Shown piece by piece: positions 30,981 to 48,386 of a stretch of 64,000 bases of DNA. The notes under the pieces were generated by a model. That model was not told where the DNA came from and did not search any database. It saw nothing but the letters and a program-made list of their open reading frames with translations. The stretch is taken from NCBI RefSeq assembly GCF_046105845.1, contig NZ_CP151004.1; one strand, 5' to 3'. The DNA comes from Escherichia coli (GTDB lineage: Bacteria; Pseudomonadota; Gammaproteobacteria; Enterobacterales; Enterobacteriaceae). Within the stretch, counting starts at the first letter, position 1. The number at the start of each line of letters is the position of its first letter. The position numbers were made by a program, and so were the translations under genes.

Positions 30981-31318
30981 TTTAGTCCCTGAAAATTCTT
31001 GAGAAATAACGGTTCTTTAAATTGCGCGCGAGGAGAGATATGAGGGATTTACAGACCAGCGGCGTAGTGGGGTTGTCAGCCAGTAAGGTGGGATACAGGC
31101 ATAGTGATCGACATGGTGAGGTCAACGACAAAAAAAATGTTGCCGTTCTGCCAACAGTTCCTGCCAGCATTCGGGCAACGAAGGGTTCTACTGGTGGATA
31201 CATATACCAGGGGAATAAAGTCGTTTTAACCTCTCCTTTAGTAATCACCGGGGGTAATGAAATCAGCATCTGCATCCCTCGTCATGCCAGCCATCAATTT
31301 CAGTTGCTTATGTCCTGA

Positions 31319-31846
31319 CTAAAAATAAGATGTGATACCCAGGGTGACGATGTCGCTCATACGTCTTAGTTTCAGCTTGTACATAATGTTGAATTTCTGA
31401 ATCTTTAATGTTTGTTGCGAAATATTGAGCGTCGACGTGATATTGCTTTCATTTTTATTTTTCAGAATCAGTTGCATAATTTTGAACTGATTATGTGAAA
31501 AACATAATTGTGAATTCTTATGGGGCAAGTGTTTACCATAAGTAATCTCAAGAAGATTTTTGATACTTTCTTTGCGGCTGACAAAATAAATAGGCGCTTT
31601 AGCTTTTAGTTTACTGATGTGATAAGGTGCCAAAACAATAATTCTCTCGGCATCTAATTTCTCCAGAAATTTAATCGCTTCTTCATCAAGGATATGATTG
31701 TGATAGGTATCAATGATAACCTTGAAGGGTTTATTACCTACTTTTTTGATCTCTGACAGGGAATTGATTTTTATCATTTCGTGATTATCTTTCAACTGCC
31801 AAAAGCCCTGTAAAAGAAAAGAATCTTTCGTCATGAGAAAAATCAT
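31319..31846 (-). CDS. gadE: LuxR-family acid-resistance master regulator GadE
   Basis: 175-aa sequence from internal Met (MIFLMTKDSFLLQGFWQL...); the ORF extends 26 codons upstream; very AT-rich. Confidence 0.92.
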   Translation of the reverse strand: MIFLMTKDSFLLQGFWQLKDNHEMIKINSLSEIKKVGNKPFKVIIDTYHNHILDEEAIKFLEKLDAERIIVLAPYHISKLKAKAPIYFVSRKESIKNLLEITYGKHLPHKNSQLCFSHNQFKIMQLILKNKNESNITSTLNISQQTLKIQKFNIMYKLKLRRMSDIVTLGITSYF

Positions 31847-32644
31847 AACTTGCTCCTTAGCCGTTATCGTTTCGAACATGTCATCCTTTTCATTATTTAC
31901 ATCCTTGTCCGAATCGTTGTTCAATATAGTAAACGCCTATAAGAACTTTGCCCTTCGTGAACTAATACGTCTATTAACACTAATCAATGCTTCAGATTTA
32001 TCCATCACGCACTCCATATATTGATCCTAAGTAAAATTCCTGGTTGTTATCAGTTTGTAAACAGCAAACAAAAACTTAACGTTTGCGGATTACTGCCCAA
32101 GAATAAGTTATCAATAACCAGTTTGTGATCTCTGAAGAATATTACTAAAGTTAAAATGTAATCCGATTTAAATATCGAGTCTCCTTGTTTCGACTTAAGC
32201 TGGCAATTGGATTGCCAGCTTTCTTTTAACGCATTGAAATTACCTGAGTAAATAACTCATTCATGTCTTCAGGTTTTTATATAGCGTCTGGAGACACGGA
32301 TATTTATGCAATGTAATCAACGCCAGTTGCAAAAAAATGAACCCGGATTACTTATTTAACCGCCCATAGCATCAACGCTTACGGAACTCTTTGTTCACTT
32401 TCCCACAGCACTTTTAAAACATTAAACCTGACTACGGAAAATATCAGCCATGATAATGTTTGAAATGGCTAATTTGCCATGGAATGAAAAAAATTAGATG
32501 AAATTCAGTAGGTTGAAATAATCATCAGCAGGTAATTATTTCAATGATAGTGCGCAATTGATCTACAACGCTGTGTAGCGGAGAGAGTATTAATCGGATC
32601 ATAGTCACATCAAGTGACTATGATCCGGGTGACAACAGGGATAA

Positions 32645-33217
32645 TTATTGCTGCTTAACGAACAAACTGGCGAAGCTGAACAGGCTGGCGGCGCTAAATA
32701 TCAGTTCAATACCCACCAGTGTGGAAACCAAAGTTACAGACACCATCGGCGTTGCACCAAGGAATATCCATGCAATGACGATATCCAGCACACCAATAAC
32801 GAGCTGTAGCCAGCTGCCTTTCATTGAACGCTGACGATACCAACTCATCAGGCGAATAACCCCTGCAACACAGAACAAACCGGCAATAAATGCCGCAATG
32901 GCAAAAATGCCCAGCTCCGGTGCGCGGATGAAGAAATAGCCGATCAATAAATAGGCGACTGCGACGAGGAAACCGGATAATACAGGCCAGAAATTATGAC
33001 TGCGGTTGCTGAATAATCCAACAATAAGCGCTATGCCCGAGCAGATTAATAATGCACCCACTACCGTGCTTAAAATATCGCCAGAGACGAACGGGAAACT
33101 GATACACAGCAACCCGACGATAAACAGTAGCACGGCAATAAACTGGATTGCTCTGCGATGCTTTTTCAGCATCTCCAGATCAAACTTCAAAATTGTTGCC
33201 TTATCTATATATAACAT
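32645..33217 (-). CDS. hdeD: Acid-resistance membrane protein HdeD
   Basis: 190-aa ORF with about 6 TM segments, divergent from hdeAB. Confidence 0.93.
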   Translation of the reverse strand: MLYIDKATILKFDLEMLKKHRRAIQFIAVLLFIVGLLCISFPFVSGDILSTVVGALLICSGIALIVGLFSNRSHNFWPVLSGFLVAVAYLLIGYFFIRAPELGIFAIAAFIAGLFCVAGVIRLMSWYRQRSMKGSWLQLVIGVLDIVIAWIFLGATPMVSVTLVSTLVGIELIFSAASLFSFASLFVKQQ

Positions 33218-33471
33218 AGAACCACCCTATAAAATTAAGAAGAAAATCCCCTGCTATCAATCTATGCCAAAAACGCGTCTAAGAATGCAGTCGATTTAAT
33301 AAAAATTTCCTAATTACAGTATCTGATGCATCTGTAACTCATTGTATTGAAATAAAAATATCTGATTTTGATATTTTCCATCAACATGACATATACAGAA
33401 AACCAGGTTATAACCTCAGTGTCGAAATTGATTCGTGACGGCTCTTTCACTTTATAGTTGAGGATATTACG

Positions 33472-33804
33472 ATGAAAAAAGTATTAGGCGTTATTCTTGG
33501 TGGTCTGCTTCTTCTGCCAGTTGTGAGCAATGCAGCGGATGCGCAAAAAGCAGCTGATAACAAAAAACCGGTCAACTCCTGGACCTGTGAAGATTTCCTG
33601 GCTGTGGACGAATCCTTCCAGCCAACTGCAGTTGGTTTTGCTGAAGCGCTGAACAACAAAGATAAACCAGAAGATGCGGTTTTAGATGTTCAGGGTATTG
33701 CAACCGTAACCCCAGCTATCGTTCAGGCTTGTACTCAGGATAAACAAGCCAACTTTAAAGATAAAGTTAAAGGCGAGTGGGACAAAATTAAGAAAGATAT
33801 GTAA
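33472..33804 (+). CDS. hdeA: Periplasmic acid-stress chaperone HdeA
   Basis: 110-aa ORF with signal peptide (MKKVLGVILGGLLLLPVVSNA). Confidence 0.95.
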   Translation: MKKVLGVILGGLLLLPVVSNAADAQKAADNKKPVNSWTCEDFLAVDESFQPTAVGFAEALNNKDKPEDAVLDVQGIATVTPAIVQACTQDKQANFKDKVKGEWDKIKKDM

Positions 33805-33919
33805 TTCCGGGAATGCGTTACATCGTACTTCCTTGCATATTGAACAGGCCGGAATATCTTCTTTAAAAGCAGCTATTCCGCCTGTTCATATATAATCTCT
33901 ATATTGAATGGGTTACAAA

Positions 33920-34246
33920 ATGAATATTTCATCTCTCCGTAAAGCGTTTATTTTTATGGGCGCTGTAGCGGCTTTGTCACTGGTGAACGCACAATCTGCG
34001 CTGGCAGCCAATGAATCCGCTAAAGATATTACCTGCCAGGAATTTATTGATCTGAATCCAAAAGCAATGACACCGGTTGCATGGTGGATGCTGCATGAAG
34101 AGACAGTATATAAAGGTGGCGATACCGTTACTTTAAATGAAACCGATCTCACTCAAATTCCTAAAGTGATCGAATACTGCAAGAAAAACCCGCAGAAAAA
34201 TTTGTATACCTTCAAAAATCAAGCATCTAATGACTTGCCGAATTAA
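33920..34246 (+). CDS. hdeB: Periplasmic acid-stress chaperone HdeB
   Basis: 108-aa sequence from internal Met (MNISSLRKAFIFMGAVAALSLVNAQSALA...). Confidence 0.93.
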   Translation: MNISSLRKAFIFMGAVAALSLVNAQSALAANESAKDITCQEFIDLNPKAMTPVAWWMLHEETVYKGGDTVTLNETDLTQIPKVIEYCKKNPQKNLYTFKNQASNDLPN

Positions 34247-34258
34247 TGAGGTACAAGT

Positions 34259-34306
34259 AAAAAGGAGTAGCAAGTTGAGCCATCTTGCTGCTCCTTTTTG
34301 CATTTT
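34259..34306 (+). terminator. Hairpin plus T-tract after hdeB (partial terminator ahead of yhiD)
   Basis: aaaaggagtagcaag / cttgctgctccttttt stem followed by ttttgcattttt. Confidence 0.6.
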
Positions 34307-34309
34307 TAT

Positions 34310-34957
34310 ATGACAGCAGAATTTATTATACGTCTTATACTCGCAGCAATTGCCTGTGGCGCTATTGGCATGGAAAGGCAAATACGCGGCAAAGGAGCAG
34401 GGTTACGCACACATGTATTAATTGGCATGGGAAGCGCCCTGTTTATGATTGTTTCGAAATATGGTTTTGCTGACGTACTGTCTTTAGATCACGTCGGACT
34501 GGACCCCAGCCGTATTGCTGCTCAGGTGGTGACGGGCGTCGGGTTTATCGGTGCAGGTAACATTCTCGTTCGTAACCAAAATATTGTAGGTCTGACGACG
34601 GCAGCGGATATCTGGGTGACCGCCGCCATAGGTATGGTTATTGGCAGTGGTATGTACGAACTGGGTATTTATGGTTCAGTGATGACCTTGCTGGTGCTGG
34701 AAGTCTTCCATCAATTAACCTTCCGCCTGATGAACAAAAATTACCATTTACAGCTGACATTAGTGAACGGTAATACGGTATCAATGCTCGACTGGTTTAA
34801 GCAGCAAAAAATAAAAACGGATTTAGTTTCGTTGCAGGAAAATGAAGATCATGAAGTGGTCGCCATTGATATCCAGCTTCATGCCACGACGTCGATAGAA
34901 GATCTGTTGCGATTATTAAAAGGTATGGCAGGGGTGAAAGGCGTTTCAATTAGCTAA
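34310..34957 (+). CDS. yhiD: MgtC/SapB-family inner membrane protein YhiD
   Basis: 215-aa sequence from ATG (MTAEFIIRLILAAIACGAIGMERQ...); the ORF track starts at an upstream TTG. Confidence 0.9.
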   Translation: MTAEFIIRLILAAIACGAIGMERQIRGKGAGLRTHVLIGMGSALFMIVSKYGFADVLSLDHVGLDPSRIAAQVVTGVGFIGAGNILVRNQNIVGLTTAADIWVTAAIGMVIGSGMYELGIYGSVMTLLVLEVFHQLTFRLMNKNYHLQLTLVNGNTVSMLDWFKQQKIKTDLVSLQENEDHEVVAIDIQLHATTSIEDLLRLLKGMAGVKGVSIS

Positions 34958-35008
34958 TCTGTATAGTTATTTATTCGCAGGAGTACCAAAGCGGTACTCC
35001 TGTTGGTT

Positions 35009-35779
35009 TTAATGATCGAGGACGATCAGTGGTGAATGGTTGGCAGGATCTTTAAGTACGGTAATATCCGCGCCGTAGAGCATTGTCAGCGCCTGCTGTG
35101 TCAATACATCCTGCGGTTTACCATTTGCGATAACCTTTCCTTTTTGCATTAATACAATACGGTCTGCATAACGTGCGGCAAGATTTAGATCGTGCAATAC
35201 GCAGCAAACATTGAATTGCCGTTCGTGAACTAACTGGCGTAATAAACGGAACAAGTGCTGCTGATGGTGAATATCCAGCGCCGAAGTTGGTTCATCAAGA
35301 AATAACCATTTCGGTGAGGGAGTAGGTTCCCAGAGTTGCACCAGCAGGCGCGCTAATTGCACGCGCTGTTGTTCACCACCGGATAATTGCCGATAGTCGC
35401 GGTTTGCTAACGCCTGACAGTCACATAACGCCATTATTTGTGCTGTTTCATTATCCTGATTACCAGTACGATGCGGATGCCGACCCATCTGGATAACTTC
35501 TTGTACGCTGAATGGAAACGCCATGTGGCTATTTTGACGCATCACGGCCCGGTGTTTCGCCAGTTCAGTAATCGACCATTCATTTAATGGCTTATTAAAC
35601 AACCGACATTCGCCGCTATCAGGTTGAAGATAGCCGGTTAACTGGCGAAGCAGCGTAGATTTTCCCGCACCATTAGGGCCGAGAATGGCAACAATTTCCC
35701 CACCGGGAAAAGTCAGCGAGACATTATCAGTCAGACGCCGCCCCTGAAGGCTATAAACCAGATTCTGGGCGCTGATCAT
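35009..35779 (-). CDS. chuV: Haemin ABC transporter ATP-binding protein (ChuV/HmuV)
   Basis: Walker [13 protein letters not shown] signature LSGGEQQR, Walker [12 protein letters not shown]; start at internal Met (MISAQNL) overlapping the chuU stop as ATGA. Confidence 0.9.
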
Positions 35780-36768
35780 GTGATCCTCCGGTTGCGCAGA
35801 ATCAACCACATAAAATAAGGACCACCAAGCAGGCTGGTTAATAATCCCACGGGCATTTCTGCTGGCTGTACCAGCGTGCGGGCAAGCGTGTCTGCCATCA
35901 GCAATAAACAGGCTCCGGCGAGGGCGGAACAAGGGATTAGCCAGCGGTGATTTGCTCCGGTAGTCATGCGAATCAGATGCGGGATTACCAGGCCAATAAA
36001 GCCGATAATGCCGCTTACCGATACGGCAGCACCAACGAGCAGTGAGCTCACTAACAGTAATTGCTGGCGTTTACGCTTAACGTTCACGCCGAGGTAATGG
36101 GCTTCTTCATCACCGAGCTGCAGTAAATTCAGCGTTCCGGCGAGATAAGTTGTTGCGATAATGGCCGGTAGGATGAATGAACTGGCAACCAATAACGTCG
36201 GCCATTGCGCCTGTCCAAGATTGCCCATCATCCACAATGTGAGTTGTCGTAGCTGCTGCTCATCGCCGATATAGCTCAGGATGCCGATCGCTGCGCCGCA
36301 CAGGGCATTGATGGCGATACCGGCGAGTAATAATTGCATCATGCTGCCATCGCGATGGCGCTGCGTGATGAGAAAAATGATGGTGCAGACCACTAAACTT
36401 CCGGCAATGGCAAACACCATTTGCTCATAGAGCACCAGCACCACTGGGAAGGAGAAGGGCAGCACAATAGCAACGCCAACCATTAATGCAGAACCGCTAC
36501 TGACGCCGAGTAATCCAGGGTCAGCCATTGGGTTGCGAAAAAGCCCCTGCATAATTACCCCGGCGGTTGCCAACGCTGCACCTACCAGCACCGCCAGCAA
36601 AACCCGTGGTAGACGAATATTGAGCCAGATATCGCGGTATTCCTCATCAAAAAGGGCATCAAAACTGATCTTTAACGCTCCCTGACTGGCACCGAACAGC
36701 ACTAGGGCAAGCAATAATAGTGATAGCCCCATAAAGACCCTGGCGGATGAAAATGAATCCTTGAGCAC
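35776..36768 (-). CDS. chuU: Haemin ABC transporter permease (FecCD family) ChuU
   Basis: 330-aa polytopic ORF; 2-nt overlap into chuV. Confidence 0.9.
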
Positions 36769-36818
36769 GCAAAACTCCGTTATGACGTTGCGGCGCGGAG
36801 AGTCTGCGCCGCATGGGA

Positions 36819-37442
36819 TTACGCCGGTTTCAGGTCAGGTTCAATCAGACTGTAGATCTGCTTGTTGAGTGCTGGCGCGTTTGCCAGTTCATGAATGTGT
36901 GCAGCGACATCGGCACGGTGAACAAAACCATGACACTCCTGATGTTGTATCCGTTGTGCTTTGCCCGTTGCCGCACCATCAAGCAGACCGCCAGGGCGGA
37001 GAATGGCGTAATCAAGCTGGCTGGTTTGCAACCAGCTTTCCGCCAGCGTTTTTTCCCGTACCGCCTGACCAAACGCAGCCTTTGCCCGCTCCGATAAAAA
37101 CGGCCAGCTATCGCCGCATCCCAAAGAGGTCACCAGAATCATGCGACTGATGCCGGCCTTTTCGGCCTCATCAATCACTGTTCTGTGCGCCAGATAATCC
37201 TGAGCTCCGCCCATTGTTGAGATGATAAGCGCATCCGGGCCAGCTGCGCGGCAAGCAGCCGCAACTACGCTGGCATCACAGGCGTCGCCTGTAAAAACCT
37301 GTACGCCTTGTTGCGCCAGTTTCGTGGCGGCATCGGCATGACGAATGACAGCAACGACCGGACGTTGTTCCGCCAGCGCCAGTTCAAGCGTTCTGGCACC
37401 CACACCTTTTCCGCCTGCGCCAAAGAGTAGCCACGGCGTCAT
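36819..37442 (-). CDS. chuY: NAD(P)-binding Rossmann-fold reductase ChuY (haem catabolite reductase)
   Basis: 207-aa ORF with N-terminal GxGxxG-like motif (LLFGAGGKGVGA); start overlaps the chuX stop by 1 nt. Confidence 0.85.
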   Translation of the reverse strand: MTPWLLFGAGGKGVGARTLELALAEQRPVVAVIRHADAATKLAQQGVQVFTGDACDASVVAAACRAAGPDALIISTMGGAQDYLAHRTVIDEAEKAGISRMILVTSLGCGDSWPFLSERAKAAFGQAVREKTLAESWLQTSQLDYAILRPGGLLDGAATGKAQRIQHQECHGFVHRADVAAHIHELANAPALNKQIYSLIEPDLKPA

Positions 37443-37936
37443 CAGGCGTGCTCCTTTAACGATGCCGCCAGAGCATGGAAAGCGTTGACCTGTTCGCTCA
37501 GGAGCTGACGATGGTCATCCCTGCCGAGGAAGATTTTCAGCATGGCGCTGCCTTCCTTATTGAAAAAGAGAATAGAGGCGGTGTCCATGCCCATAAATTT
37601 ACGTTCGATCAAGGCAATATGCGTGCAGTTTTCTGCTTTGATATGCCCGGACATGCCGTGCTTTCCGCGTAGGTTGAAATAGCCGTGGCGGTGGAAACCC
37701 GAAGGCAGTTCGCCGCTAAATTCGAGGATTACATCGGCAGTATGTACTAACGTGGTGACGTTGCCCCATTCGCAGACGGTATCCCAGACAGTATCGAATT
37801 TATCGCCTGACACTATGGTAGAGGAGGGCAGATTTTTCACTACTTCCAGCAGTGTGGTGTTGTATTGTTCGGCTACCACCTCCAGCGTACCGTCCGGCTC
37901 CGTTTTCAAAAATTCTTGTAACGAGACATGGCTCAT
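37442..37936 (-). CDS. chuX: Haem utilisation / haem-binding protein ChuX
   Basis: 164-aa ORF between chuW and chuY. Confidence 0.85.
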   Translation of the reverse strand: MSHVSLQEFLKTEPDGTLEVVAEQYNTTLLEVVKNLPSSTIVSGDKFDTVWDTVCEWGNVTTLVHTADVILEFSGELPSGFHRHGYFNLRGKHGMSGHIKAENCTHIALIERKFMGMDTASILFFNKEGSAMLKIFLGRDDHRQLLSEQVNAFHALAASLKEHA

Positions 37937-37948
37937 AAATCACTCCTG

Positions 37949-39286
37949 TTATGGTTTTTCACGCACAATCGCTGGCGCATTAAGTACCTGAATTAGTTCA
38001 TTAAGAGACTGCAAAATATTGCTTGCCCAGAAACGACCTTCATTAGTCAGCCGCAGGCAAGTTGAAGCATCGCGGCTTAAGCCTTTTTGGTGCCATTGAG
38101 CCAGTAACGGCGCGAGTTTTTCGGCATGTGGCGTAAGTTCATCCAGCGGTACACGCGCTGTTTCAACACCTGACTGCAAGGTATGACGCCATTGCGCATT
38201 ACGTTCGGCGTTACGCATGATCATCATCAGCGGTTTTTTGCCTGCCGCGACGGATTCATGCCAGGTCTGCAGATTGCGTTCGTTCATCCAGGAGTAACCA
38301 TTAATCGAACCGCCGGCTCCGGAACCAAAGGCCAGACAATCGGCACCTTGTTTAATCAGCAGGTTATAGAGATTGCATTCGCGTGTGGTACGGCCCCAGT
38401 GGCTGTTACTAATACAGCGCCAACCGGCTTCGTCCATGAAGTCACACCCTTGCAGATAAAGATCGCGACGTTCTGCCGGAGAGGGCACGGTAGTACGCCC
38501 ATTTTCCACGGCTTTGCCCAGCGGTGTATTGGGCAGGACATTGAGCGCATAGAGATCGACGCCGTCGAGACCGATATCGCGAGCAATAGCCAGATCTTCT
38601 CCCCAGGTTTGCGCATCCTGACCCGGCAGGCCAAACAGCAGGTCACAGACCACCGCTGCACGGTCGCGTTTGACCAGGCTTTCCATAAACGCAATGGCGG
38701 TTGGGCCATCCGAGGTGCGGGCCATTTTCTTGCGGATTTTGCTGTTAAACGACTGAATACCAATTGAGAAGCGGTTTGCTCCTGCATCAAGGCAAGCATC
38801 GATTCGCTCAGCGTCAAAATTCAGTACCCGGCCTTCGATAGTGATTTCACAATCAGGGGCCAGTGGCAGCTTTTCTCGTAATGTGGTGATAATTCTGGCC
38901 AAATCGTGTGCCGAAAGCGCGGAAGGCGTGCCGCCACCGAAATAGACCGCGTGGATGGGGGCAGACTGATGCAATACGCTGTCCGCTTCCATTTCTATTT
39001 CACGAATCAGGGCGTCGGTATAATGAGCACACGCATCCTCATTAAAACGGTTCTGATAAAAACCACAAAACGTGCAGTGTGTCGCACAAAAAGGAATGTG
39101 TAGATAAACCAGTCGCTTACGTGGTGATACCGTTTGATTGATCATCTCTTGCCAGGTCTGTGCCAGTTGCTCTTTGGCAACTGGAATGGCCCCACGAAAC
39201 GGCATCATGGCGCGCCTGTCTTTAAATGGCTGATCACCGTCTAAAGCAAAATGTGGCGTGAGATCCAGGGTGTTATTTACGTTCAT
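37949..39286 (-). CDS. chuW: Radical-SAM anaerobic haem-degrading enzyme ChuW (HemN-like)
   Basis: 445-aa ORF with CxxxCxxC motif (CATHCTFC) near the N-terminus. Confidence 0.9.
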   Translation of the reverse strand: MNVNNTLDLTPHFALDGDQPFKDRRAMMPFRGAIPVAKEQLAQTWQEMINQTVSPRKRLVYLHIPFCATHCTFCGFYQNRFNEDACAHYTDALIREIEMEADSVLHQSAPIHAVYFGGGTPSALSAHDLARIITTLREKLPLAPDCEITIEGRVLNFDAERIDACLDAGANRFSIGIQSFNSKIRKKMARTSDGPTAIAFMESLVKRDRAAVVCDLLFGLPGQDAQTWGEDLAIARDIGLDGVDLYALNVLPNTPLGKAVENGRTTVPSPAERRDLYLQGCDFMDEAGWRCISNSHWGRTTRECNLYNLLIKQGADCLAFGSGAGGSINGYSWMNERNLQTWHESVAAGKKPLMMIMRNAERNAQWRHTLQSGVETARVPLDELTPHAEKLAPLLAQWHQKGLSRDASTCLRLTNEGRFWASNILQSLNELIQVLNAPAIVREKP

Positions 39287-39305
39287 TCGTCTGATTTAAA
39301 TCCAT

Positions 39306-40220
39306 TTATTGCGGCCAAAGCTGCTGGTGTAAAGACTCAACGACATCAGCAATACGCGGACCCATTCCCAGAATCAGGTTTTGATCAACGGTGATAATGC
39401 GCTGGTTTTTCCATGCGGCAGTGTGGGTAATTCCGGCAATAGAACGTAGCCGGTTAATATCGCCATCGACCATTTGTGAGGTTACGACAATCACTTCTGG
39501 ATTAGCCGCAATCAGTGATTCTGCACTGTAGCTTTTGTACTGCTGGTGGGTTGCGACGTTTTCTGCTCCGGCAAGCGAAAGAATGGCGTCCGCGACGCTG
39601 CCTTTACCGGCAACCTGTGGCGCACTTCCGCCTGCGGAGAGAATAAACATGGCTTTAACCGGGGCTTTTTTGGCCGCCACGTTTTGCTGTACTCGCTCCA
39701 GGCGTTGGTTGATCTGTGTCACCAGCGCCTCGCCTTGTTCAGGAACCTGTAGCGTTTTTGCCAGTTGGCGAATGTTGGCGTACATCTGCTGAAGGGTGGC
39801 AGGCACACGCGGCAGGGTGACGACGTTGACTTTCTGCGCTCGTAATTGGTCGAGCACAATTTGTGGCCCGGCATCCTGCCAGGTAATTACGCTATCCGGG
39901 CGAAGTGACAAAATGCCTTCGCTGTTGAGTTGTTTCCAGTAGCCAATATGCGGCAGTTTGGCGGTTTCTGGTGGATAAGATGTCGTTTCATCGACACCAA
40001 CCACGCGTTCGCCAGCGCCCATCGCGTAGATTAGCTCCGTCAGCGATCCTCCTGCGACCACGATACGTTCGGCAGCCGTTACGCTAAAAGCCCAGCTAAG
40101 AGCCAGTACTGCCGTAAACAATTTTTTTCGTTTTACCGCGGTCTTCGCGGCAGAGGCCACGGCTGAAATACATAACGTCAGTGGAGAAAAAAGAAACGGC
40201 CTGGTGATGATCCTTGGCAT
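39306..40220 (-). CDS. chuT: Periplasmic haemin-binding protein ChuT (start uncertain)
   Basis: Substrate-binding-protein-like ORF; the longest ORF start (40298) lies upstream of a Fur box, so the ATG at 40220 or a downstream non-ATG start before the signal-like KKLFTAVLALSWAFSVTA is more likely. Confidence 0.8.
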   Translation of the reverse strand: MPRIITRPFLFSPLTLCISAVASAAKTAVKRKKLFTAVLALSWAFSVTAAERIVVAGGSLTELIYAMGAGERVVGVDETTSYPPETAKLPHIGYWKQLNSEGILSLRPDSVITWQDAGPQIVLDQLRAQKVNVVTLPRVPATLQQMYANIRQLAKTLQVPEQGEALVTQINQRLERVQQNVAAKKAPVKAMFILSAGGSAPQVAGKGSVADAILSLAGAENVATHQQYKSYSAESLIAANPEVIVVTSQMVDGDINRLRSIAGITHTAAWKNQRIITVDQNLILGMGPRIADVVESLHQQLWPQ

Positions 40221-40245
40221 AATATGAGAACTCTTATCAAGTTGA

Positions 40246-40264
40246 GAATGATCATGATTATCAT
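40246..40264. promoter_or_regulatory. Fur box at the chuT(WXYUV) promoter
   Basis: gaatgatcatgattatcat closely matches the Fur consensus gataatgataatcattatc. Confidence 0.65.
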
Positions 40265-40594
40265 TTGAGTTATATATGAAATACAACCGTCGATTCAATA
40301 CGCACGGCGTTACAAGCGTATTTATTTTTGATTTTTATCAAGATGCTTCGTCAGCTAACGTTCTTGTTACCGACTAAATTTCAGCGCGGGAAAAAGCTGA
40401 GAACCCAGAGATATCGAGGCTTGCAGAGCAAAGCGAAGAGAAAATTATCACTGTTAACGACAAAGTTTAGTGATGAGGTCATGGGGGAATAACCATAAAA
40501 ATAAAGTGGTTTTCAGGGCGCGGGATAGGTTTCATAACCCCCTGTTTATTGTGTTAATGGCGGTTAAAAAAAGCTTGATCATAAAAAATTGATC

Positions 40595-40613
40595 GATAAT
40601 AATTCTCATTATC
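40595..40613. promoter_or_regulatory. Fur box at the chuA promoter
   Basis: gataataattctcattatc matches 15 of 19 consensus positions; about 290 bp upstream of the chuA ATG, implying a long 5' leader. Confidence 0.65.
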
Positions 40614-40881
40614 ACATTTGCGCTTAACAAAACACGACCATATGGATAACAAAACCATAGCATTTGCAAGGGATAACGCACAGCGCTCTTCACTCCTGAT
40701 GGGGCATATCGTTTTGCCTGACAAAGAGGGCGTGCTTTTGCGTATTTGCCGAGATACCAGGCAATTTCATGGGATATAAACGCCTGTAAACTCACCCGGC
40801 GAATATTATCGCCCTGAATTTTAAATAAATTTATTTTTCGCCAGCCACCCCGGTATTAACCCAGGCAGCCAGCATTTTTTA

Positions 40882-40896
40882 TTTTCCTCATGGAGA
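40882..40896 (+). promoter_or_regulatory. U-rich/SD hairpin in the chuA leader (candidate FourU-type RNA thermometer)
   Basis: ttttcc tcat ggaga: the U-rich tract can pair with the GGAG Shine-Dalgarno just 5' of the ATG. Confidence 0.4.
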
Positions 40897-40902
40897 ATCG
40901 CT

Positions 40903-42885
40903 ATGTCACGTCCGCAATTTACCTCGTTGCGTTTGAGTTTGTTGGCTTTGGCTGTTTCTGCCACCTTGCCAACGTTTGCTTTTGCTACTGAAACCATGAC
41001 CGTTACGGCAACGGGGAATGCCCGTAGTTCCTTCGAAGCGCCTATGATGGTCAGCGTCATCGACACTTCCGCTCCTGAAAATCAAACGGCTACTTCAGCC
41101 ACCGATCTGCTGCGTCATGTTCCTGGAATTACTCTTGATGGTACCGGACGAACCAACGGTCAGGATGTAAATATGCGTGGCTATGATCATCGCGGCGTGC
41201 TGGTTCTTGTCGATGGTGTTCGCCAGGGAACGGATACCGGACACCTGAATGGTACTTTTCTTGATCCGGCGCTGATCAAGCGTGTTGAGATTGTTCGCGG
41301 ACCTTCAGCATTACTGTATGGCAGTGGCGCGCTGGGTGGGGTGATCTCCTACGATACGGTCGATGCAAAAGATTTATTGCAGGAAGGACAAAGTAGTGGT
41401 TTTCGTGTCTTTGGTACTGGCGGCACGGGGGACCATAGCCTGGGATTAGGCGCGAGCGCGTTTGGACGAACTGAAAATCTGGATGGTATTGTGGCCTGGT
41501 CCAGTCGCGATCGGGGTGATTTACGCCAGAGCAATGATGAAACCGCGCCGAATGACGAGTCCATTAATAACATGCTGGCGAAAGGGACCTGGCAAATTGA
41601 TTCAGCCCAGTCTCTGAGCGGTTTAGTGCGTTACTACAACAACGACGCGCGTGAACCAAAAAATCCGCAGACCGTTGAAGCTTCTGATAGCAGCAACCCG
41701 ATGGTTGATCGTTCAACAATTCAACGCGATGTGCAGCTTTCTTATAAACTCGCCCCGCAGGGCAACGACTGGTTAAATGCAGATGCAAAAATTTACTGGT
41801 CGGAAGTCCGTATTAATGCGCAAAACACGGGGAGTTCCGGCGAGTATCGTGAACAGATAACAAAAGGAGCCAGGCTGGAGAACCGTTCCACTCTATTTGC
41901 CGACAGTTTCGCTTCTCACTTACTGACATATGGCGGTGAGTATTATCGTCAGGAACAACATCCGGGCGGCGCGACGACGGGCTTCCCGCAAGCAAAAATC
42001 GATTTTAGCTCTGGCTGGCTACAGGATGAGATCACCTTACGCGATCTGCCGATTACCCTGCTTGGCGGAACCCGCTATGACAGTTATCGCGGTAGCAGCG
42101 ACGGCTACAAAGATGTTGATGCTGACAAATGGTCATCTCGTGCGGGGATGACTATCAACCCGACCAACTGGCTGATGTTATTTGGCTCATATGCCCAGGC
42201 ATTCCGCGCCCCGACGATGGGCGAAATGTATAACGATTCTAAGCACTTCTCGATTGGTCGCTTCTATACCAACTATTGGGTGCCAAACCCGAACTTACGT
42301 CCGGAAACTAACGAAACTCAGGAGTACGGTTTTGGGCTGCGTTTTGATGACCTGATGTTGTCCAATGATGCCCTGGAATTTAAAGCCAGCTACTTTGATA
42401 CCAAAGCGAAGGATTACATCTCCACGACCGTCGATTTCGCGGCGGCGACAACTATGTCGTATAACGTCCCGAACGCCAAAATCTGGGGTTGGGATGTGAT
42501 GACGAAATATACCACTGATCTGTTTAGCCTTGATGTGGCCTATAACCGTACCCGCGGCAAAGACACCGATACCGGCGAATATATCTCCAGTATTAACCCG
42601 GATACCGTTACCAGCACCCTGAATATTCCGATCGCTCACAGTGGCTTCTCTGTTGGGTGGGTTGGTACGTTTGCCGATCGCTCAACACATATCAGCAGCA
42701 GTTACAGCAAACAACCAGGCTATGGCGTGAATGATTTCTACGTCAGTTATCAAGGACAACAGGCGCTCAAAGGTATGACCACTACTTTGGTGTTGGGTAA
42801 CGCTTTCGACAAAGAGTACTGGTCGCCACAAGGCATCCCACAGGATGGTCGTAATGGAAAAATTTTCGTGAGTTATCAATGGTAA
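40903..42885 (+). CDS. chuA: TonB-dependent outer-membrane haem/haemoglobin receptor ChuA
   Basis: 660-aa ORF with signal peptide, TonB-box-like region (ETMTVTAT) and aromatic C-terminus ending ...VSYQW. Confidence 0.95.
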   Translation: MSRPQFTSLRLSLLALAVSATLPTFAFATETMTVTATGNARSSFEAPMMVSVIDTSAPENQTATSATDLLRHVPGITLDGTGRTNGQDVNMRGYDHRGVLVLVDGVRQGTDTGHLNGTFLDPALIKRVEIVRGPSALLYGSGALGGVISYDTVDAKDLLQEGQSSGFRVFGTGGTGDHSLGLGASAFGRTENLDGIVAWSSRDRGDLRQSNDETAPNDESINNMLAKGTWQIDSAQSLSGLVRYYNNDAREPKNPQTVEASDSSNPMVDRSTIQRDVQLSYKLAPQGNDWLNADAKIYWSEVRINAQNTGSSGEYREQITKGARLENRSTLFADSFASHLLTYGGEYYRQEQHPGGATTGFPQAKIDFSSGWLQDEITLRDLPITLLGGTRYDSYRGSSDGYKDVDADKWSSRAGMTINPTNWLMLFGSYAQAFRAPTMGEMYNDSKHFSIGRFYTNYWVPNPNLRPETNETQEYGFGLRFDDLMLSNDALEFKASYFDTKAKDYISTTVDFAAATTMSYNVPNAKIWGWDVMTKYTTDLFSLDVAYNRTRGKDTDTGEYISSINPDTVTSTLNIPIAHSGFSVGWVGTFADRSTHISSSYSKQPGYGVNDFYVSYQGQQALKGMTTTLVLGNAFDKEYWSPQGIPQDGRNGKIFVSYQW

Positions 42886-42933
42886 TCATCTGCCCCGATA
42901 TTTCGGGGCATTTATCTGGAAGGAAGAGAGACA

Positions 42934-43962
42934 ATGAACCACTACACACGCTGGCTTGAGTTAAAAGAACAAAATCCCGGAAAGTACGCGCGTGACATCG
43001 CAGGTTTAATGAATATTAGCGAAGCAGAACTGGCATTTGCACGCGTCACGCACGATGCGTGGCGGATGCGCGGCGATATCCGTGAAATTCTGGCGGCGCT
43101 CGAAAGTGTTGGCGAGACCAAATGTATTTGTCGTAATGAATATGCAGTCCATGAGCAAGTTGGTGCGTTCACAAACCAGCATTTGAACGGACATGCCGGA
43201 TTGATCCTCAATCCACGCGCGCTGGATTTGCGTCTGTTTCTCAATCAATGGGCCAGTGTTTTCCACATCAAAGAAAATACGACTCGTGGCGAACGCCAGA
43301 GTATTCAGTTCTTTGATCATCAGGGCGATGCATTACTAAAAGTTTATGCCACCGACAATACCGATATGGCGGCATGGAGTGAGCTTCTGGCACGGTTTAT
43401 CGCCGATGAGAATACGCCGCTTGAGTTAAAAGCCGTTGATGCGCCAGTCGTTCAAATGCGAGCCGATGCCAGTGTGGTCGAGCAAGAGTGGCGGGCGATG
43501 ACCGACGTTCATCAGTTTTTTACGTTGCTCAAGCGCCACAACCTGACGCGCCAACAGGCGTTCAATCTGGTGGCAGACGATTTGGCCTGCAAAGTATCCA
43601 ACAGTGCGTTGGCGCAAATTCTTGAATCTGCACAGCAGGATGGCAATGAAATCATGGTGTTTGTTGGCAACCGTGGCTGCGTACAGATTTTCACTGGCGT
43701 GGTAGAAAAAGTGGTGCCAATGAAAGGTTGGCTGAATATTTTTAACCCGACGTTTACTCTTCATCTATTAGAAGAGAGCATTGCTGAAACCTGGGTAACC
43801 CGTAAACCTGCTAGTGACGGTTATGTGACCAGTCTGGAATTGTTTGCCCATGATGGTACGCAGATAGCGCAACTTTATGGTCAACGTACAGAAGGCGAAC
43901 AGGAGCAAGCGCAATGGCGTAAGCAAATTGCTTCGCTGATACCGGAAGGCGTTACTGTATAA
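42934..43962 (+). CDS. chuS: Cytoplasmic haem oxygenase / haem utilisation protein ChuS
   Basis: 342-aa ORF immediately downstream of chuA. Confidence 0.92.
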   Translation: MNHYTRWLELKEQNPGKYARDIAGLMNISEAELAFARVTHDAWRMRGDIREILAALESVGETKCICRNEYAVHEQVGAFTNQHLNGHAGLILNPRALDLRLFLNQWASVFHIKENTTRGERQSIQFFDHQGDALLKVYATDNTDMAAWSELLARFIADENTPLELKAVDAPVVQMRADASVVEQEWRAMTDVHQFFTLLKRHNLTRQQAFNLVADDLACKVSNSALAQILESAQQDGNEIMVFVGNRGCVQIFTGVVEKVVPMKGWLNIFNPTFTLHLLEESIAETWVTRKPASDGYVTSLELFAHDGTQIAQLYGQRTEGEQEQAQWRKQIASLIPEGVTV

Positions 43963-44022
43963 CGTATAATTAACGGGAGGTCTGGCTATTTATTGTTGGG
44001 CCTCTTTATATTAATCAATCGA

Positions 44023-44553
44023 TCACACCAGATAATCAATATGCTGATGGCGTACCAACTCATTGATCCGCTTAAGATTGAGGATCATCATGATATTGTG
44101 TTTATGGCAGTAGAACGTTTTTAGCGATATTTTCAGTTTCTCCAGAATATCTTCCGTTGTCATTTGATTCGCAATGCAGCTCAGAACCTGATGCTGCTTG
44201 CGCGAAAGGGACACATCCGCTTCAGGCACAGAGCAGTAACTGCCATTGATGAGTGCGACAAAGTCGATGATGGTGATAGTTCGCGGAACAAAGGTCACCG
44301 GTACTTTCCCCAGGCAGCGTTTAATATTAAAGGGGGAGAAAATAATCACATGGACAGGTTTTAATCGTTCAATTTGAGTGAGCAAATTAGAATGAAATAC
44401 ATTATTCATTAATGTATCAATAATGACGAAGGCATGCTGATGCAACATTACGTCGATCTCTTCTTCGTTCTGTATATGAACGACATTACCTTTACTCAGA
44501 ATGTTTTTCATCGCAGTGAAGAACATCGTATCCCTGGTAATTATAAGAAACAT
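44023..44553 (-). CDS. dctR: LuxR-family regulator DctR (YhiF)
   Basis: 176-aa AT-rich ORF with C-terminal LuxR-type HTH. Confidence 0.9.
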   Translation of the reverse strand: MFLIITRDTMFFTAMKNILSKGNVVHIQNEEEIDVMLHQHAFVIIDTLMNNVFHSNLLTQIERLKPVHVIIFSPFNIKRCLGKVPVTFVPRTITIIDFVALINGSYCSVPEADVSLSRKQHQVLSCIANQMTTEDILEKLKISLKTFYCHKHNIMMILNLKRINELVRHQHIDYLV

Positions 44554-44708
44554 AACCGACTCCTGGTGCGGACATTAACTTTATAATCAGTTTGCCAAAG
44601 GTAATTAACAGGACAGGGCTTATAATAATAATAGTTAGCTGGCTGTGTATTAATTTGATGTAATGCATGATGCAGATGCTGAGAAAGCATCTGCATCTCT
44701 CGGTGGTG

Positions 44709-45275
44709 TTATTTGACCAGCTCAGGTGTTACCTGACTCACCGCATTGGTGTAGTAAGGCGCGCCCCAGCCCGGTTCCGGCCAGAATGCACCATAGCCGT
44801 AATCCCACAGGTTATAGGTGGTATTAACCACTTCTCTCAAATGCCACACCTGGATGCCCTGCATATTCACTTCGAGGAAGTTATACGGGACTTTATTGAT
44901 AAAGCCAGGTTGTTCACCCTGAATGGTACCGAGGATGGTAACAAAGTGATTACGATAGTTCACTGGATCAAGGAAGCCGCTTTGTCTGGCGAGCAGTCGG
45001 CCCTGATAGTTGGCTTCAATATCAGGCTTCGCATAGCTATCCAACGGTAATACAGCGATTTCTAACAACGTATCCGTTTTGCCATTGATAACGTTGATAA
45101 CCTTCCCACCAAAGCGCGCTTGTTGACCAACATATAACCCCGGCTGGTTATGAACAGCAACAAAACTTTTTTGAATATCAGGTTGGTTATTGCCTTTGAT
45201 ATTTTGCGGAATTGAACTACATGCGGCAAGCAAAAATGAAAGGCTGAGGATGAGTGCACCTTTTGTCATGTTCAT
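44709..45275 (-). CDS. slp: Starvation-inducible outer membrane lipoprotein Slp
   Basis: 188-aa sequence from internal Met (MNMTKGALILSLSFLLAACSS, lipobox LAAC); the ORF extends 11 codons upstream. Confidence 0.9.
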   Translation of the reverse strand: MNMTKGALILSLSFLLAACSSIPQNIKGNNQPDIQKSFVAVHNQPGLYVGQQARFGGKVINVINGKTDTLLEIAVLPLDSYAKPDIEANYQGRLLARQSGFLDPVNYRNHFVTILGTIQGEQPGFINKVPYNFLEVNMQGIQVWHLREVVNTTYNLWDYGYGAFWPEPGWGAPYYTNAVSQVTPELVK

Positions 45276-45518
45276 GTTACTATCCTTATCAACAAATATT
45301 AAAACCATAATAGATATTTCTTTATAGTTTTCATCTGATTCTGAGGCGATATGCCTGATAGTAACGTAAACCTGTCTGATGTTTATATCCCTCTGTTTAG
45401 TTTAATTCTGTTAATTTTGGGGCGTGACATGAGTATCCATCGCCCCATAAAATAGCCTTTTTTTAAAGGTACATAAAATCTATTTTATTCAATGATTATA
45501 AAGCGCTAATGTTCAATA

Positions 45519-46742
45519 TTATGGGATTATATTCTGGTAATGATTTGATAAGCGAATTCTTTTGCCAGTTGGTATTTCTATTTCCACCCCATAATTTATA
45601 GTTTTTTCATCAGGTAGCGATCTCTTTAAATAAGGTGCGCATGACATTTTTTTTGGGTTAAGCGTCTCGCGTTGAAATACTTCGAATTGATATTCAGACA
45701 TTTCTGCCCATGTTTGAATTTTATTGTATCGGGAGAGTGTCGTAAAGGCTTTAACTTGCTTATAACATTGTTTTTTGAATTCTTGCTGATATTTTAATAT
45801 GTCATTGTATGAAATATTGGTTATCCTGGCCTCTAAGAATTTAATTATTGTCGAAGCAATTTCCGCTTTTGCTCGTAAAAAGTTGTCATTAATGGTTAAT
45901 AATGTTGAAAATAAACCTTCGATTTGTTTGTCAAGATATTGTTCGTCTTTATATAATTTGGGGGTAGGGTGTTCTTTATGTGAAAAAATAGTGTCACCTA
46001 AATTTGCGTCAGTGAAATTTATATTAAGTAGATCTTCGAAATAAAACCTTGACAAGGTTAGAACGAACCCGGACAGGTTCTGTCCTGTCATATTGAAATC
46101 AATAAAGTTGGTTCCGGCAAAGACTTTCATCCTGTTTTTATTTTCACTGTGCTCAATATATAACTTCGTCATTTTTTGATACAGGTTTTGAATATCTTTT
46201 ATATTAGTCGGTAAGTCAGCTCGTTGTTCAGCAATAAAATTAGTATCTGAAAACGTGGTTTGGACACTGAATGTTATGGGTATTCCCTCTTCTACGCTAA
46301 TTTTAGTTATGATTGCCTTGTCGGGTTTAGGATTAGCGACAACAATGATTCGACATTCAGCACTTTTGTTCTTTTCGTATCTAATGTTATTAATTTGATT
46401 AAGTAGTCCCTGTGCCTGCCGCGTAAGTGGTGTCGAACTTATCGATTCAATGTTAGTAATAAGACTTACAAGTTGAGCCACAACTTTGGAGTAGTCTGCA
46501 TTTGTATATGTGGTGTTCGTGCGGCACGCATAAATTTGTGGGAGGTGTTTCCGCGCTAAATCATATTGTTCAGGGTTGTATCCTTCTCCAGAGAATGGGG
46601 AATTAATGGGTTGTTGTTCTTCCTGATTATCACAAGGCCACATCGGTGTGTCTGGTGTTTTAACATTGTCGGTATCTGTTGTGCGGTTATAAATATCGCC
46701 GTGATATGTATTTATCATACTTGGGGTAAAGTCAATTGACAT
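45519..46742 (-). CDS. yhiS: YhiS-type hypothetical protein, intact 407 aa; polar N-terminus and a pentapeptide-repeat-like tract
   Basis: ATG at 46742 with SD aagga 6 nt upstream; very AT-rich; no signal peptide or TM segment; central tract [45 protein letters not shown]. Confidence 0.8.
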
Positions 46743-47322
46743 AACATTCCTTATTGTTCATCTATTTCGCTAAATTTTTGTAAATCGGAGAATTAGAGCA
46801 GGAATGGATTTTCTTCTACGCGGAAATAAACACAATGCGCCATATCTTCCTGATATAATTACCTTTAACTTCCCTTTCATTTCCACCCGGTAATATTTGT
46901 GTATAAAAAAAGGGCAGTGATAGTATCGTAAAGGAAAACGTTAACAACTATCAAAAAGCGCTCATTTTAAAAAGTTATGATGTTCTCCGATAGTGTGTGA
47001 AGTGATATTTTTGTGATGTTTTAGATGTGTAATAATGAACCAGGTTAAAGTGTATTTAAAAATGTGTTGTATTGGCGACTGAAATCTGCCCTTTAAAAGG
47101 GGGGATAGCACTGAGACAAAGAGGCATTGCTTCTCCGATAAAATGTCAGAGAAGCATGATTGCGTGGTGATTGTCGATTGATGACTTACTGACGGATCCG
47201 TCATCATTCTCAAAGCATTAGTTAAGTTATTTGTGATTTTTAAGGATTATCCTATCTATGATTTTCTACTCAGAAGGATAAGGCACTCACAATGCTCCTT
47301 ATAGTTTACTGCTGGCATCTAT

Positions 47323-48324: not shown

Positions 48325-48349
48325 ACGTAACCTCATTGAATAAATCTAT

Positions 48350-48369
48350 ATTTCCAGAATAATCGAAAT
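48350..48369. promoter_or_regulatory. 20-bp dyad box 1 (ATTTC-N10-GAAAT) in the divergent permease/regulator promoter region
   Basis: atttccagaataatcgaaat; second near-identical copy 37 bp away. Confidence 0.4.
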
Positions 48370-48386
48370 GAAATTCAGATCAAGAT

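Follow-up and report, generated by a model that had tools for sequence, protein, structure and literature searches.

The segment between positions 34963 and 44022 of the window (the whole 64,000-nucleotide stretch of Escherichia coli DNA that was analysed) is, with high confidence, the chu haem uptake/utilisation locus (shu in Shigella; O-island 140), and homology together with published work on its orthologues indicates that it would act in the manner typical of its family. Its presence in some genomes and absence from others probably goes back to a single ancient insertion, made when the acid-fitness island (AFI) was already in place, and to a long-lived presence/absence polymorphism thereafter. 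The locus is important and well studied, with ChuA being a virulence-associated haem receptor and a vaccine candidate. In addition, chuA is one marker of the Clermont phylogrouping PCR. The chu genes and their placement between yhiD and dctR are already known and constitute textbook material rather than a discovery: the arrangement inside the acid fitness island has been published (PMC10540162, PMC5799925 and bioRxiv 10.1101/429480, each citing earlier work), with chuVUYXWT running divergently from chuA-chuS between yhiD and dctR/yhiF (PMC10540162). Finding it again shows only that a known island is recognisable from raw sequence.

Gene content and borders

The original prediction had placed eight chu genes between yhiD and dctR, and all of them (chuV-U-Y-X-W-T on the minus strand, chuA-chuS on the plus strand) were recovered as intact open reading frames on the strands named, with no internal stop in any of the eight. 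Their identities were drawn from curated HMMs, solved structures and RefSeq annotation, and the HMM, Pfam and structure matches bear out that they are chu homologues. The left flank is formed by yhiD (34310..34957, plus strand), an acid fitness island gene of the MgtC/SapB family that scored 400 bits against NF007431 (cutoff 214) and is 100% identical to yhiD of E. coli TUM14759. It is followed on the minus strand by chuV (35009..35779), annotated as the haem ABC transporter ATPase (NF010068, 395.5 bits, cutoff 261), and by chuU (35776..36768), the haem ABC transporter permease of FecCD/BtuC type, which is 100% identical to an annotated ShuU/ChuU and whose matches to BtuC/FecCD-type HMMs all fall under their equivalog cutoffs. 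The same strand carries chuY (36819..37442), annotated as an anaerobilin reductase with an NAD(P)H-binding fold (PDB 5FFQ and 5GUY, ShuY-like/ChuY, E = 1e-133; PF13460), chuX (37442..37936), a cytosolic haem carrier of the HutX family (TIGR04108, 210 bits, cutoff 110; PF06228), chuW (37949..39286), a radical-SAM methyltransferase of anaerobic haem degradation (TIGR04107, 567 bits, cutoff 400), and chuT (39306..40220), encoding the periplasmic haem-binding protein (PF01497; 98% identical to an annotated ShuT). On the plus strand, chuA (40903..42885) encodes the TonB-dependent outer-membrane haem/haemoglobin receptor, a protein of 660 amino acids that is matched over its full length by TIGR01785 (587.5 bits, cutoff 316.85) and shares 99.2% amino-acid identity with the annotated ChuA/ShuA. 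The succeeding chuS (42934..43962) encodes a cytoplasmic haem-degrading protein with two HemS/ChuX domains (PDB 4CDP and 1U9T, E. coli ChuS, E = 1e-226; PF05171 in two stretches). The right flank is dctR (yhiF; 44023..44553, minus strand), a LuxR-type regulator recognised through annotation, alignment and GerE/LuxR-type C-terminal matches. The locus thereby holds the haem receptor ChuA, the transporter ChuT/ChuU/ChuV, the two-domain ChuS and the anaerobic ChuW/ChuX/ChuY, in the gene order and at the yhiD/dctR site of chu/shu, together with Fur-box divergent promoters and a FourU thermometer.

Base-level alignment to an empty-site genome (CP137765) delimited an island-specific segment of 9,060 bp, with breakpoints at 34962|34963 and 44022|44023. 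The last bases common to the empty site on the left are TCTGT (34958..34962, no strand assigned), and the TCTGT|AT junction is identical in the Escherichia lineages L003, L004 and L006; on the right, homology to the empty site restarts at the dctR stop codon. Of the span initially proposed (34958-44022), the right end thus stood and the left end moved inwards by 5 nt. The abrupt borders with gaps of about 50 and 60 bp were measured as 51 nt (from the yhiD stop at 34957 to the chuV stop at 35009) and 60 nt (from the chuS stop at 43962 to the dctR stop at 44023). Moreover, the adjacency of dctR and yhiD in K-12 was confirmed: in MG1655 they are convergent neighbours without chu, separated by a 41-bp spacer.

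Regulatory elements and predicted mode of action

The whole 64 kb contains only two 16/19 matches to the Fur box, both of them in the divergent chuT/chuA promoter region. The one on the chuT side (40244..40262, no strand assigned) lies inside the 42-nt stretch that precedes the chuT ATG, in agreement with the Fur site in the 42-nt shuT 5' UTR (PMC5458455). The one on the chuA side (40595..40613, plus strand) overlaps the -10 of promoter-like hexamers (40575..40603, plus strand; start inferred). These hexamers would give chuA a 5' UTR of about 290 nt, close to the approximately 300-nt leader that is reported for shuA, whose FourU element occupies -29..+3 (PMC5458455). In the window, the shuA/chuA FourU RNA thermometer (Rfam RF02597, 60.1 bits, gathering score 58) was located at 40874..40905 on the plus strand, i.e. 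at -29 to +3 of chuA; its UUUUCCU pairs with the Shine-Dalgarno GGAGAA, and the element folds as expected (z = -2.83). This thermometer has been characterised by experiment (PMC3660397), and for the orthologues it is known that haem as sole iron source supports growth, that iron represses and that 37 C induces (PMC3660397, PMC5458455). A thermometer hairpin in the chuT 5' UTR would be compatible with PMC5458455; folding by itself gives it no statistical support, as the weak hairpin present there was indistinguishable from shuffled sequences (z = -0.14).

Both borders are marked by hairpins. On the left, within island DNA, a terminator scan placed an 11-bp hairpin with a T-run (34977..35003, plus strand; -19.4 kcal/mol, z = -4.87), terminator-like for yhiD, which forms a 3' end structure between the convergent yhiD and chuV and is kept in L003 and L006. 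On the right, a 12-bp hairpin (43975..44006, plus strand; -16 kcal/mol, z = -2.93) follows chuS, between the convergent chuS and dctR, and lies at the right-hand limit of the island-specific DNA (to 44022); its stem is kept in L003, L004, L006 and E. albertii. Since both borders combine convergent gene pairs with strong hairpins, the island is predicted to be transcriptionally insulated from the acid-fitness genes. A further terminator-like hairpin (8 bp, 6 of them G-C pairs, with a T-run) lies between chuA and chuS (42891..42910, plus strand), an observation that fits the prediction by Wyckoff 1998, quoted in PMC5458455, that shuA and shuS are transcribed separately.

On the basis of family knowledge, haem (free or derived from haemoglobin) is predicted to cross the outer membrane through ChuA on TonB energy, to be carried through the periplasm by ChuT and to be pumped into the cytoplasm by ChuU and ChuV. 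With oxygen, it would be broken down by ChuS, with ChuX as haem carrier; under anaerobic conditions, ChuW (radical SAM) and ChuY (anaerobilin reductase) would open the ring and the iron would be freed. Two gates may control this route: at high iron, Fur would repress the divergent chuT and chuA promoters, and below body temperature the FourU hairpin would mask the chuA ribosome-binding site.

Distribution and origin

The island was present in 2,234 (approximately 40%) and the empty site in 3,179 of 5,426 complete E. coli genomes; every occurrence of the island fell at one chromosomal site, with 0 plasmid-borne copies. The expected correspondence with the EHEC locus was confirmed, in that O157:H7 strains (97.8% nucleotide identity, 12-kb query) and many other E. 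coli carry the island at the same site. Identities to other E. coli islands span 96.8-99.3%, which is the normal core divergence between phylogroups, and the highest value belongs to the nearest complete genome, TUM14759 (the rest of the window 98.3-98.9%). As the chu region diverges by at least 0.7% from all 5,426 complete RefSeq genomes, the window copy stems from a less-sampled lineage. The occupied and empty counts point to an island that is old yet polymorphic and not fixed in the species. Of the 'old, fixed acquisition' first suggested, the age was upheld (by species-level divergence of the island in four other Escherichia lineages), and the fixation holds only in the sense of 'immobilised'.

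Signs of mobility were sought along the locus and its surroundings. ARAGORN detected no tRNA or tmRNA genes in positions 25000-55000, the border-to-border repeat search (which had been proposed as a check) found no flanking direct or inverted repeats, and the collinear region of TUM14759, flanking acid-fitness genes included, carries no annotated integrase, transposase or other mobility gene; in the window, every island ORF is accounted for by a chu gene; the anticipated lack of integrase, tRNA and flanking direct repeats was thus sustained. The 8-nt TATTTATT, which occurs near both borders of the window copy, was considered as a repeat and dismissed as a chance occurrence because it is missing in L003. 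The only IS1 of that collinear genome, in yhjD, lies approximately 18 kb away and is missing from the window. Base composition, also proposed as a check, gave a signal contrary to that of a typical island: the GC content of the island (50.2%) is genome-like (window 49.8%, non-AFI DNA 51.6-52.6%), and it is the AT-rich acid-fitness flanks (42-43%) that deviate.

Beyond E. coli, we compared six other Escherichia lineages and one metagenomic contig (L009). The island lies at the yhiD/dctR site in L003, L004 and L006 as well as in E. albertii, the deepest-branching of the lineages sampled; E. whittamii and Escherichia sp. E1V33 have an empty site. Between lineages the island shows 90-92% nucleotide identity (neighbouring core 92-95%), a species-level divergence in step with that of the species themselves, and the acid-fitness genes of L005/L008 are approximately 85-86% identical, against 93-95% in adjacent core genes. 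In L009 (YhiD 73%, DctR 63% identical), hdeB-yhiD and dctR are adjacent without chu; of the YhiD homologues tried as outgroups it alone was useful, and two other candidates, P0009 and P0015, proved to be frameshift-ridden E. coli assemblies. The E. fergusonii acid-fitness island lacks chu (PMC5799925), and a single DctR scan of genome contigs did not recover it as an outgroup. In L004 a deletion (window 34966-40473) has removed chuV-chuT, and its left endpoint falls just 3 nt away from the border of the island. L006 shows mosaic boundaries inside yhiD and in the 3' part of chuS, which indicates that recombination acts in the chu region. In L006 and E. albertii the island is less diverged than its flanks, a pattern that either recombination or faster evolution of the acid-fitness genes may produce; a reading of the L006 profile as proof of recent island introgression was tempered, as the island is core-like and the acid-fitness genes (approximately 85%) are the outlier; the mosaic boundary inside yhiD stands regardless.

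The alignment further revealed that the empty site has its own 36 nt, which are missing from the window; because the island replaces them, the event was not a pure insertion. Such spacers (36-42 nt of own sequence; reference sequence GTGGCAGCGTAGCC...) are homologous in E. coli, E1V33 and E. whittamii: those of E1V33 and E. whittamii are 88% identical to each other and, within the bounds of such short sequences (41 nt), share 27/41 identities with E. coli (p = 0.002 and 0.0007). A search for the 36-nt filler in the window and island (up to 3 mismatches, then blastn-short with word size 7) returned only chance-level matches of 9-11 nt. A clean insertion with the original yhiD/dctR hairpin surviving to the right of chuS was rejected by local alignment against shuffled sequences, where the resemblance between GTAATTGTGCGGAGG... 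of L006 and TTAATGTGTGCGGCAG... of E1V33 was not significant (p = 0.11-0.16); reverse-complement matches (p = 0.002-0.014) were 9-10 nt long, failed correction for approximately 48 comparisons and were not common across species.

How the locus came to be so distributed may be answered in several ways, of which a recent horizontal acquisition by the strain's lineage (e.g. by transduction or conjugation from another pathogen) is scarcely credible. The literature does link chu to pathogenic lineages (PMC3660397), and the nearest genome is closer in the chu region than in the rest of the window; these points are set against identities in the ordinary core range, a constant chromosomal site with no plasmid copies, a genome-like GC content and the lack of mobility genes. 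A joint arrival of chu and the acid-fitness island as one block would account for chu genes embedded in the latter in both E. albertii and E. coli, and for the finding that, within a small genome set, the two appear to go back to one most recent common ancestor (PMC5799925). We regard it as very improbable, given the contrast in GC between chu and the adjacent acid-fitness genes, their different divergence regimes (core-like for chu, approximately 85-86% for the acid-fitness genes of L005/L008) and the existence of chu-free acid-fitness modules in L009, E. whittamii, E1V33 and E. fergusonii (the last according to PMC5799925).

An occupied state ancestral to Escherichia, with the empty sites (K-12-like, E. 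whittamii, E1V33) arising through deletion (once with spread, or several times), is unlikely, though it deserves more weight. 'Clean deletion' is among the options listed in PMC5799925, the same-site island reaches from L003 and L006 to E. albertii, and deletions inside the locus do occur, as L004 illustrates. The empty site, however, is no clean excision, as its 36-42 nt are homologous in three species and match neither the island nor its ends; deletions arising separately would not generate identical filler, and chu-free yhiD/dctR or acid-fitness regions exist in the distant L009 and in E. fergusonii. A single deletion followed by the spread of the empty allele across species is conceivable.

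An ancient insertion is favoured over 'clean deletion' because the three species share a homologous spacer unrelated to the island, and because the shared site is combined with species-level divergence. According to this ancient-insertion reading, a 9,060-bp block without mobility machinery of its own would have entered the pre-existing yhiD/dctR spacer once, before the split of E. albertii and E. coli, replacing approximately 36 nt; thereafter occupied and empty alleles would have coexisted, with homologous recombination in the acid-fitness genes on either side reassorting them. We argue from the conserved cross-species spacer that the patchy distribution probably reflects an ancient polymorphism moved by homologous recombination, rather than the outcome of repeated gain or clean loss. 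More tentatively, we suggest that the polymorphism may be genus-wide, with both alleles older than the Escherichia species splits, the empty one being the original spacer, and with both kept by opposing selection. The same junctions bound the occupied allele from E. albertii to E. coli. The benefit of haem iron in host tissue would be offset in other niches by what it costs to expose ChuA or to carry the locus, and homologous recombination across the fast-diverging flanks of acid-fitness genes would reshuffle the alleles. If true, this would answer, without clean deletion, the 'puzzling distribution' noted since 1998. The spacer result modestly refines a question that PMC5799925 had already posed, and a further search of the literature on gain versus loss of chu yielded nothing to add.

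Comparison with known systems

The closest counterpart is O-island 140 of O157:H7, which has the same eight genes in the same order and orientation at the same yhiD/dctR (yhiD/yhiF) site, with the Fur boxes and the FourU thermometer, and from which the window copy shows no structural difference. For Shigella dysenteriae, Wyckoff et al. 1998 (Mol Microbiol 28:1139), as summarised in PMC5458455, describe a 9.1-kb shu locus of eight genes with four predicted promoters (shuA, shuS, shuTWXY and shuUV), and the positions of the shuA FourU element and of the shuT Fur site map exactly onto the window. More distant relatives belong to other genera and to other chromosomal contexts: HemS of the Yersinia hemRSTUV system is homologous to ChuS (PDB 2J0P and 2J0R, E = 1e-150), and the HutW and HutX equivalog models of the Vibrio hutWXZ-type system match ChuW and ChuX above their cutoffs. 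The Escherichia/Shigella arrangement joins a HemS-type ChuS to the anaerobic ChuW/X/Y branch at the yhiD/dctR site. With the classical tRNA-associated islands (e.g. LEE at selC), chu shares strain variability, a link to virulence and the name 'O-island'; unlike them, it comes without tRNA, integrase, direct repeats or atypical composition, and its behaviour is that of a long-standing chromosomal indel polymorphism rather than of a mobile island.

Gene content and borders of the haem island

Six minus-strand and two plus-strand open reading frames fill positions 35009-43962 of the window, between a plus-strand frame ending at 34957 and a minus-strand one ending at 44023. In the nearest complete genome (TUM14759, NZ_CP128877.1) the annotated order is yhiD / ATPase-shuU-chuY-hutX-hutW-shuT / chuA-chuS / dctR. 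Checked independently of annotation (by HMM, domain and structure matches), the genes correspond to chuV (NF010068, 395.5 bits, cutoff 261), chuU (BtuC/FecCD-type permease), chuY (ChuY/ShuY structures 5GUY and 5FFQ, E = 1e-133), chuX (TIGR04108, 210 bits, cutoff 110), chuW (TIGR04107, 567 bits, cutoff 400), chuT (Peripla_BP_2, PF01497), chuA (TIGR01785, 587.5 bits, cutoff 317) and chuS (two HemS domains; E. coli ChuS structures 4CDP and 1U9T, E = 1e-226), and each of the eight runs from a start to a stop codon without an internal stop. In K-12 MG1655, dctR (b3507) and yhiD (b3508) are convergent and directly adjacent, separated by 41 bp. Since K-12 does not carry chu at this position and the frames are chu homologues, the original prediction (eight chu genes separating two K-12 neighbours) stands: the observation is confirmed by the frames, the profile and structure matches and the TUM14759 annotation, and its interpretation is supported. 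The arrangement itself is already known and published, as the literature describes a 23-kb acid fitness island (AFI) of O157:H7 that includes an O-island for haem transport (bioRxiv 10.1101/429480, citing Carter 2012), chu embedded in the AFI of both O157:H7 and E. albertii, its distribution called 'puzzling' and traced to Wyckoff 1998 (PMC5799925), and a shu locus of 9.1 kb, eight genes and four promoters (PMC5458455).

Alignment to an empty-site genome (yhiD/dctR without chu) showed that homology stops after 34962 (yhiD TAA plus TCTGT) and restarts at 44023, the dctR stop codon, which delimits 9,060 bp of island-specific DNA. As 36 nt specific to the empty site (GTGGCAGCGTAGCCAGACTCACCGTAAGCCTGAAAT) are missing from the window, the event was a replacement and not a simple insertion. 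No tRNA or tmRNA gene was found between 25 and 55 kb of the window, no repeat family joins the two island borders, and no integrase is annotated in the collinear TUM14759 region, which is ordinary chromosome (bcs ... gadAXW-mdtFE-gadE-hdeD-hdeAB-yhiD-[chu]-dctR-slp ... arsRBC-gor); the predicted abrupt borders, free of mobility signatures, were thereby borne out. The GC profile proposed as a check on the junctions pointed the other way, in that the island (50.2%) looks native (remaining window 51.6-52.6%), and the foreign-looking DNA is that of the AFI flanks (hdeD-yhiD 42.5%, dctR-slp 42.8%).

Two further features of the surroundings were observed. Right of slp lies an intact 407-aa ORF (45519-46742, minus strand, GC ~35%) without Pfam match. 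It corresponds to K-12 yhiS, which IS5 interrupts in MG1655; its identity to the homologue from one E. coli with an empty site is only 75%, and the TUM14759 copy is frameshifted. The stretch from this ORF up to the ars genes (broadly 45600-51300) is non-homologous or variably present in other Escherichia species and forms a second hypervariable spot, adjoining the AFI. Between mdtE and gadE, a strong Rfam ES205 sRNA match (31130-31201, minus strand, 105 bits, gathering score 86) runs antisense to a short ORF annotated as hypothetical.

State of the site in E. coli and other Escherichia

Of 5,426 complete E. coli genomes, 5,421 matched a 12-kb query around the region, every match being chromosomal. 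The entire query was covered in 2,234 genomes (annotated, among the full-coverage matches listed, with chuA, chuS, shuT/chuT, hutW, hutX, chuY, shuU and a haem ABC ATPase), and the other matching genomes align to the flanks only (~25% of the query; annotated hdeA, hdeB, yhiD, dctR and slp). A 201-nt empty-junction query found a one-piece match in 3,179 genomes, and the two states together explain 5,413 of the 5,426. In this clinically biased collection, presence or absence of the locus is a near-binary polymorphism; the island is therefore 'fixed', as had been proposed, in the sense of immobilised, but not as a population state. TUM14759 is 99.3% identical over the 12-kb query, with no complete RefSeq E. 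coli genome closer, which places the source strain in a lineage scarce among complete genomes. Over the remainder of the window the identity of TUM14759 drops to 98.3-98.9%, and its yhjD carries an IS1 absent from the window. Other states of the locus are rare in E. coli. In O157:H7 strains Z892 and Z852 the query matched in two pieces (~180 nt absent) and the permease is annotated just as 'FecCD family'; strains GS04 and DA61218 account for one empty site with an IS903B insertion and one genome keeping only slp of the region.

Scanning genome contigs with DctR yielded six Escherichia species-level representatives. The full island occupies the same site in E. coli SCPM-O-B-8794 (L003) and E. 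coli E69 (L006); E. albertii NBRC 107761 (L007) has the full island without yhiD, so that chuV adjoins hdeB; Escherichia sp. MOD1-EC7003 (L004) has chuA-chuS only; and Escherichia sp. E1V33 (L005) and E. whittamii (L008) are empty. The E. albertii chuV-hdeB spacer holds another hairpin (L007 19560-19626), and because this spacer differs, its left junction is unlike that of E. coli. In MOD1-EC7003, chuV-chuT and the chuT promoter are deleted (window 34966-40473); an 83-nt ERIC/IRU-like element marks the joint (the two copies lie at L004 13774-13897 and 14206-14288), 3 nt from the left island border, and a second, inverted copy of 123 nt lies in the chuA 5' UTR. Both elements, which we take to match ERIC primers, were found neither in the window nor in the other loci compared.

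Age of the island and direction of the change

Measured per gene between the window and each outgroup, chu divergence tracks species divergence: nucleotide/third-position identities of chu and flanks, respectively, are 91.6/79.8% and 92.1/80.0% for SCPM-O-B-8794, 96.1/91.1% and 96.4/91.9% for MOD1-EC7003, 92.4/81.5% and 88.0/70.3% for E69, and 89.9/76.2% and 87.2/71.0% for E. albertii. No sign of recent island transfer appeared in this comparison, in agreement with the old acquisition originally proposed. In all six species, core genes nearby (~51.3-57 kb) show 92-95% identity, and the AFI (~24940-34962 and 44023-45400) is ~85-86% identical in E1V33 and E. whittamii, as against 93-95% for the adjacent core gor-prlC. 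With chu at core-level identity and the AFI below it, the island's rate is core-like, and it is the AFI that evolves fast or has diverged deeply. The AFI flanks adjoining chu in SCPM-O-B-8794 (yhiD, dctR, slp) reach the similarity of the core (~92%), and the AFI seems to be present as deeply diverged haplotypes across the genus. In E69, identity rises from ~84% to ~95% inside yhiD (~34400-34650) and falls again in 3' chuS (~43400-43650), and the final ~40 nt of its yhiD match E. coli completely, positions at which E1V33 and E. whittamii differ. This profile is a recombination mosaic and shows homologous exchange at work in the region, which is not by itself proof of island gain.

The spacers at the empty sites of E. 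coli, E1V33 and E. whittamii can be aligned collinearly (27/41 identities of E. coli with each, p = 0.002 and 0.0007 against shuffles; 88% identity between the latter two) and bear no resemblance to island sequence beyond chance. As independent deletions would not remake homologous filler, the empty allele is a single old one, and its homology across species would point to a polymorphism of ancient date rather than to a clean deletion. A metagenomic contig from a far more divergent lineage (L009; YhiD 73%, DctR 63% identical) has hdeB-yhiD convergent with dctR, the 74-nt spacer in between containing a terminator of its own and no chu, and a non-syntenic E. fergusonii AFI also lacks chu (PMC5799925). 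On these grounds, we favour yhiD/dctR adjacency as the ancestral architecture and chu as a later single insertion. A joint arrival of AFI and chu, raised in PMC5799925, is disfavoured by their contrasting composition (50.2% against 42.5-42.8% GC) and by their unlike divergence regimes (chu core-like, AFI fast or deep). The cross-species homology of the empty-site spacer is the only increment over known facts.

Regulation and comparison with known systems

Only two 16/19 Fur consensus matches occur in the 64 kb, both within the chuT-chuA intergenic region. One (40244-40262) lies in the 42 nt that precede the chuT ATG, and the shuT 5' UTR is 42 nt long and reportedly carries the Fur site (PMC5458455); the other (40595-40613) overlaps the -10 of a promoter-like site, whose position implies a putative chuA 5' UTR of ~290 nt, in agreement with the ~300 nt reported for shuA (PMC5458455). 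Additional roles have been reported for the long chuA 5' UTR. The Rfam shuA/chuA thermoregulator (60.1 bits, gathering score 58) was found at 40874-40905, i.e. -29 to +3 of chuA, as in PMC3660397, with UUUUCCU pairing with the Shine-Dalgarno sequence (z = -2.83); folding of the hairpin in the chuT UTR is only weak (z = -0.14). The intergenic part between both Fur-controlled promoters (40150-40650) is by far the most variable stretch of the island (identity with other species of 77-81%, versus ~91% elsewhere in it), and also the site of the MOD1-EC7003 ERIC-like insertion.

Hairpins stand between convergent yhiD/chuV at the left border (34977-35003, -19.4 kcal/mol, z = -4.9) and between convergent chuS/dctR at the right (43975-44006, -16 kcal/mol, z = -2.9), and another terminator-like hairpin sets chuA and chuS apart. 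Because both borders are convergent gene pairs with strong hairpins between them, the island is probably insulated transcriptionally from the Gad/Hde genes. Compared with known systems, this copy displays all the features that define the chu/shu locus and can be tested from sequence. It departs from the classical mobile pathogenicity island in every one of its defining features.
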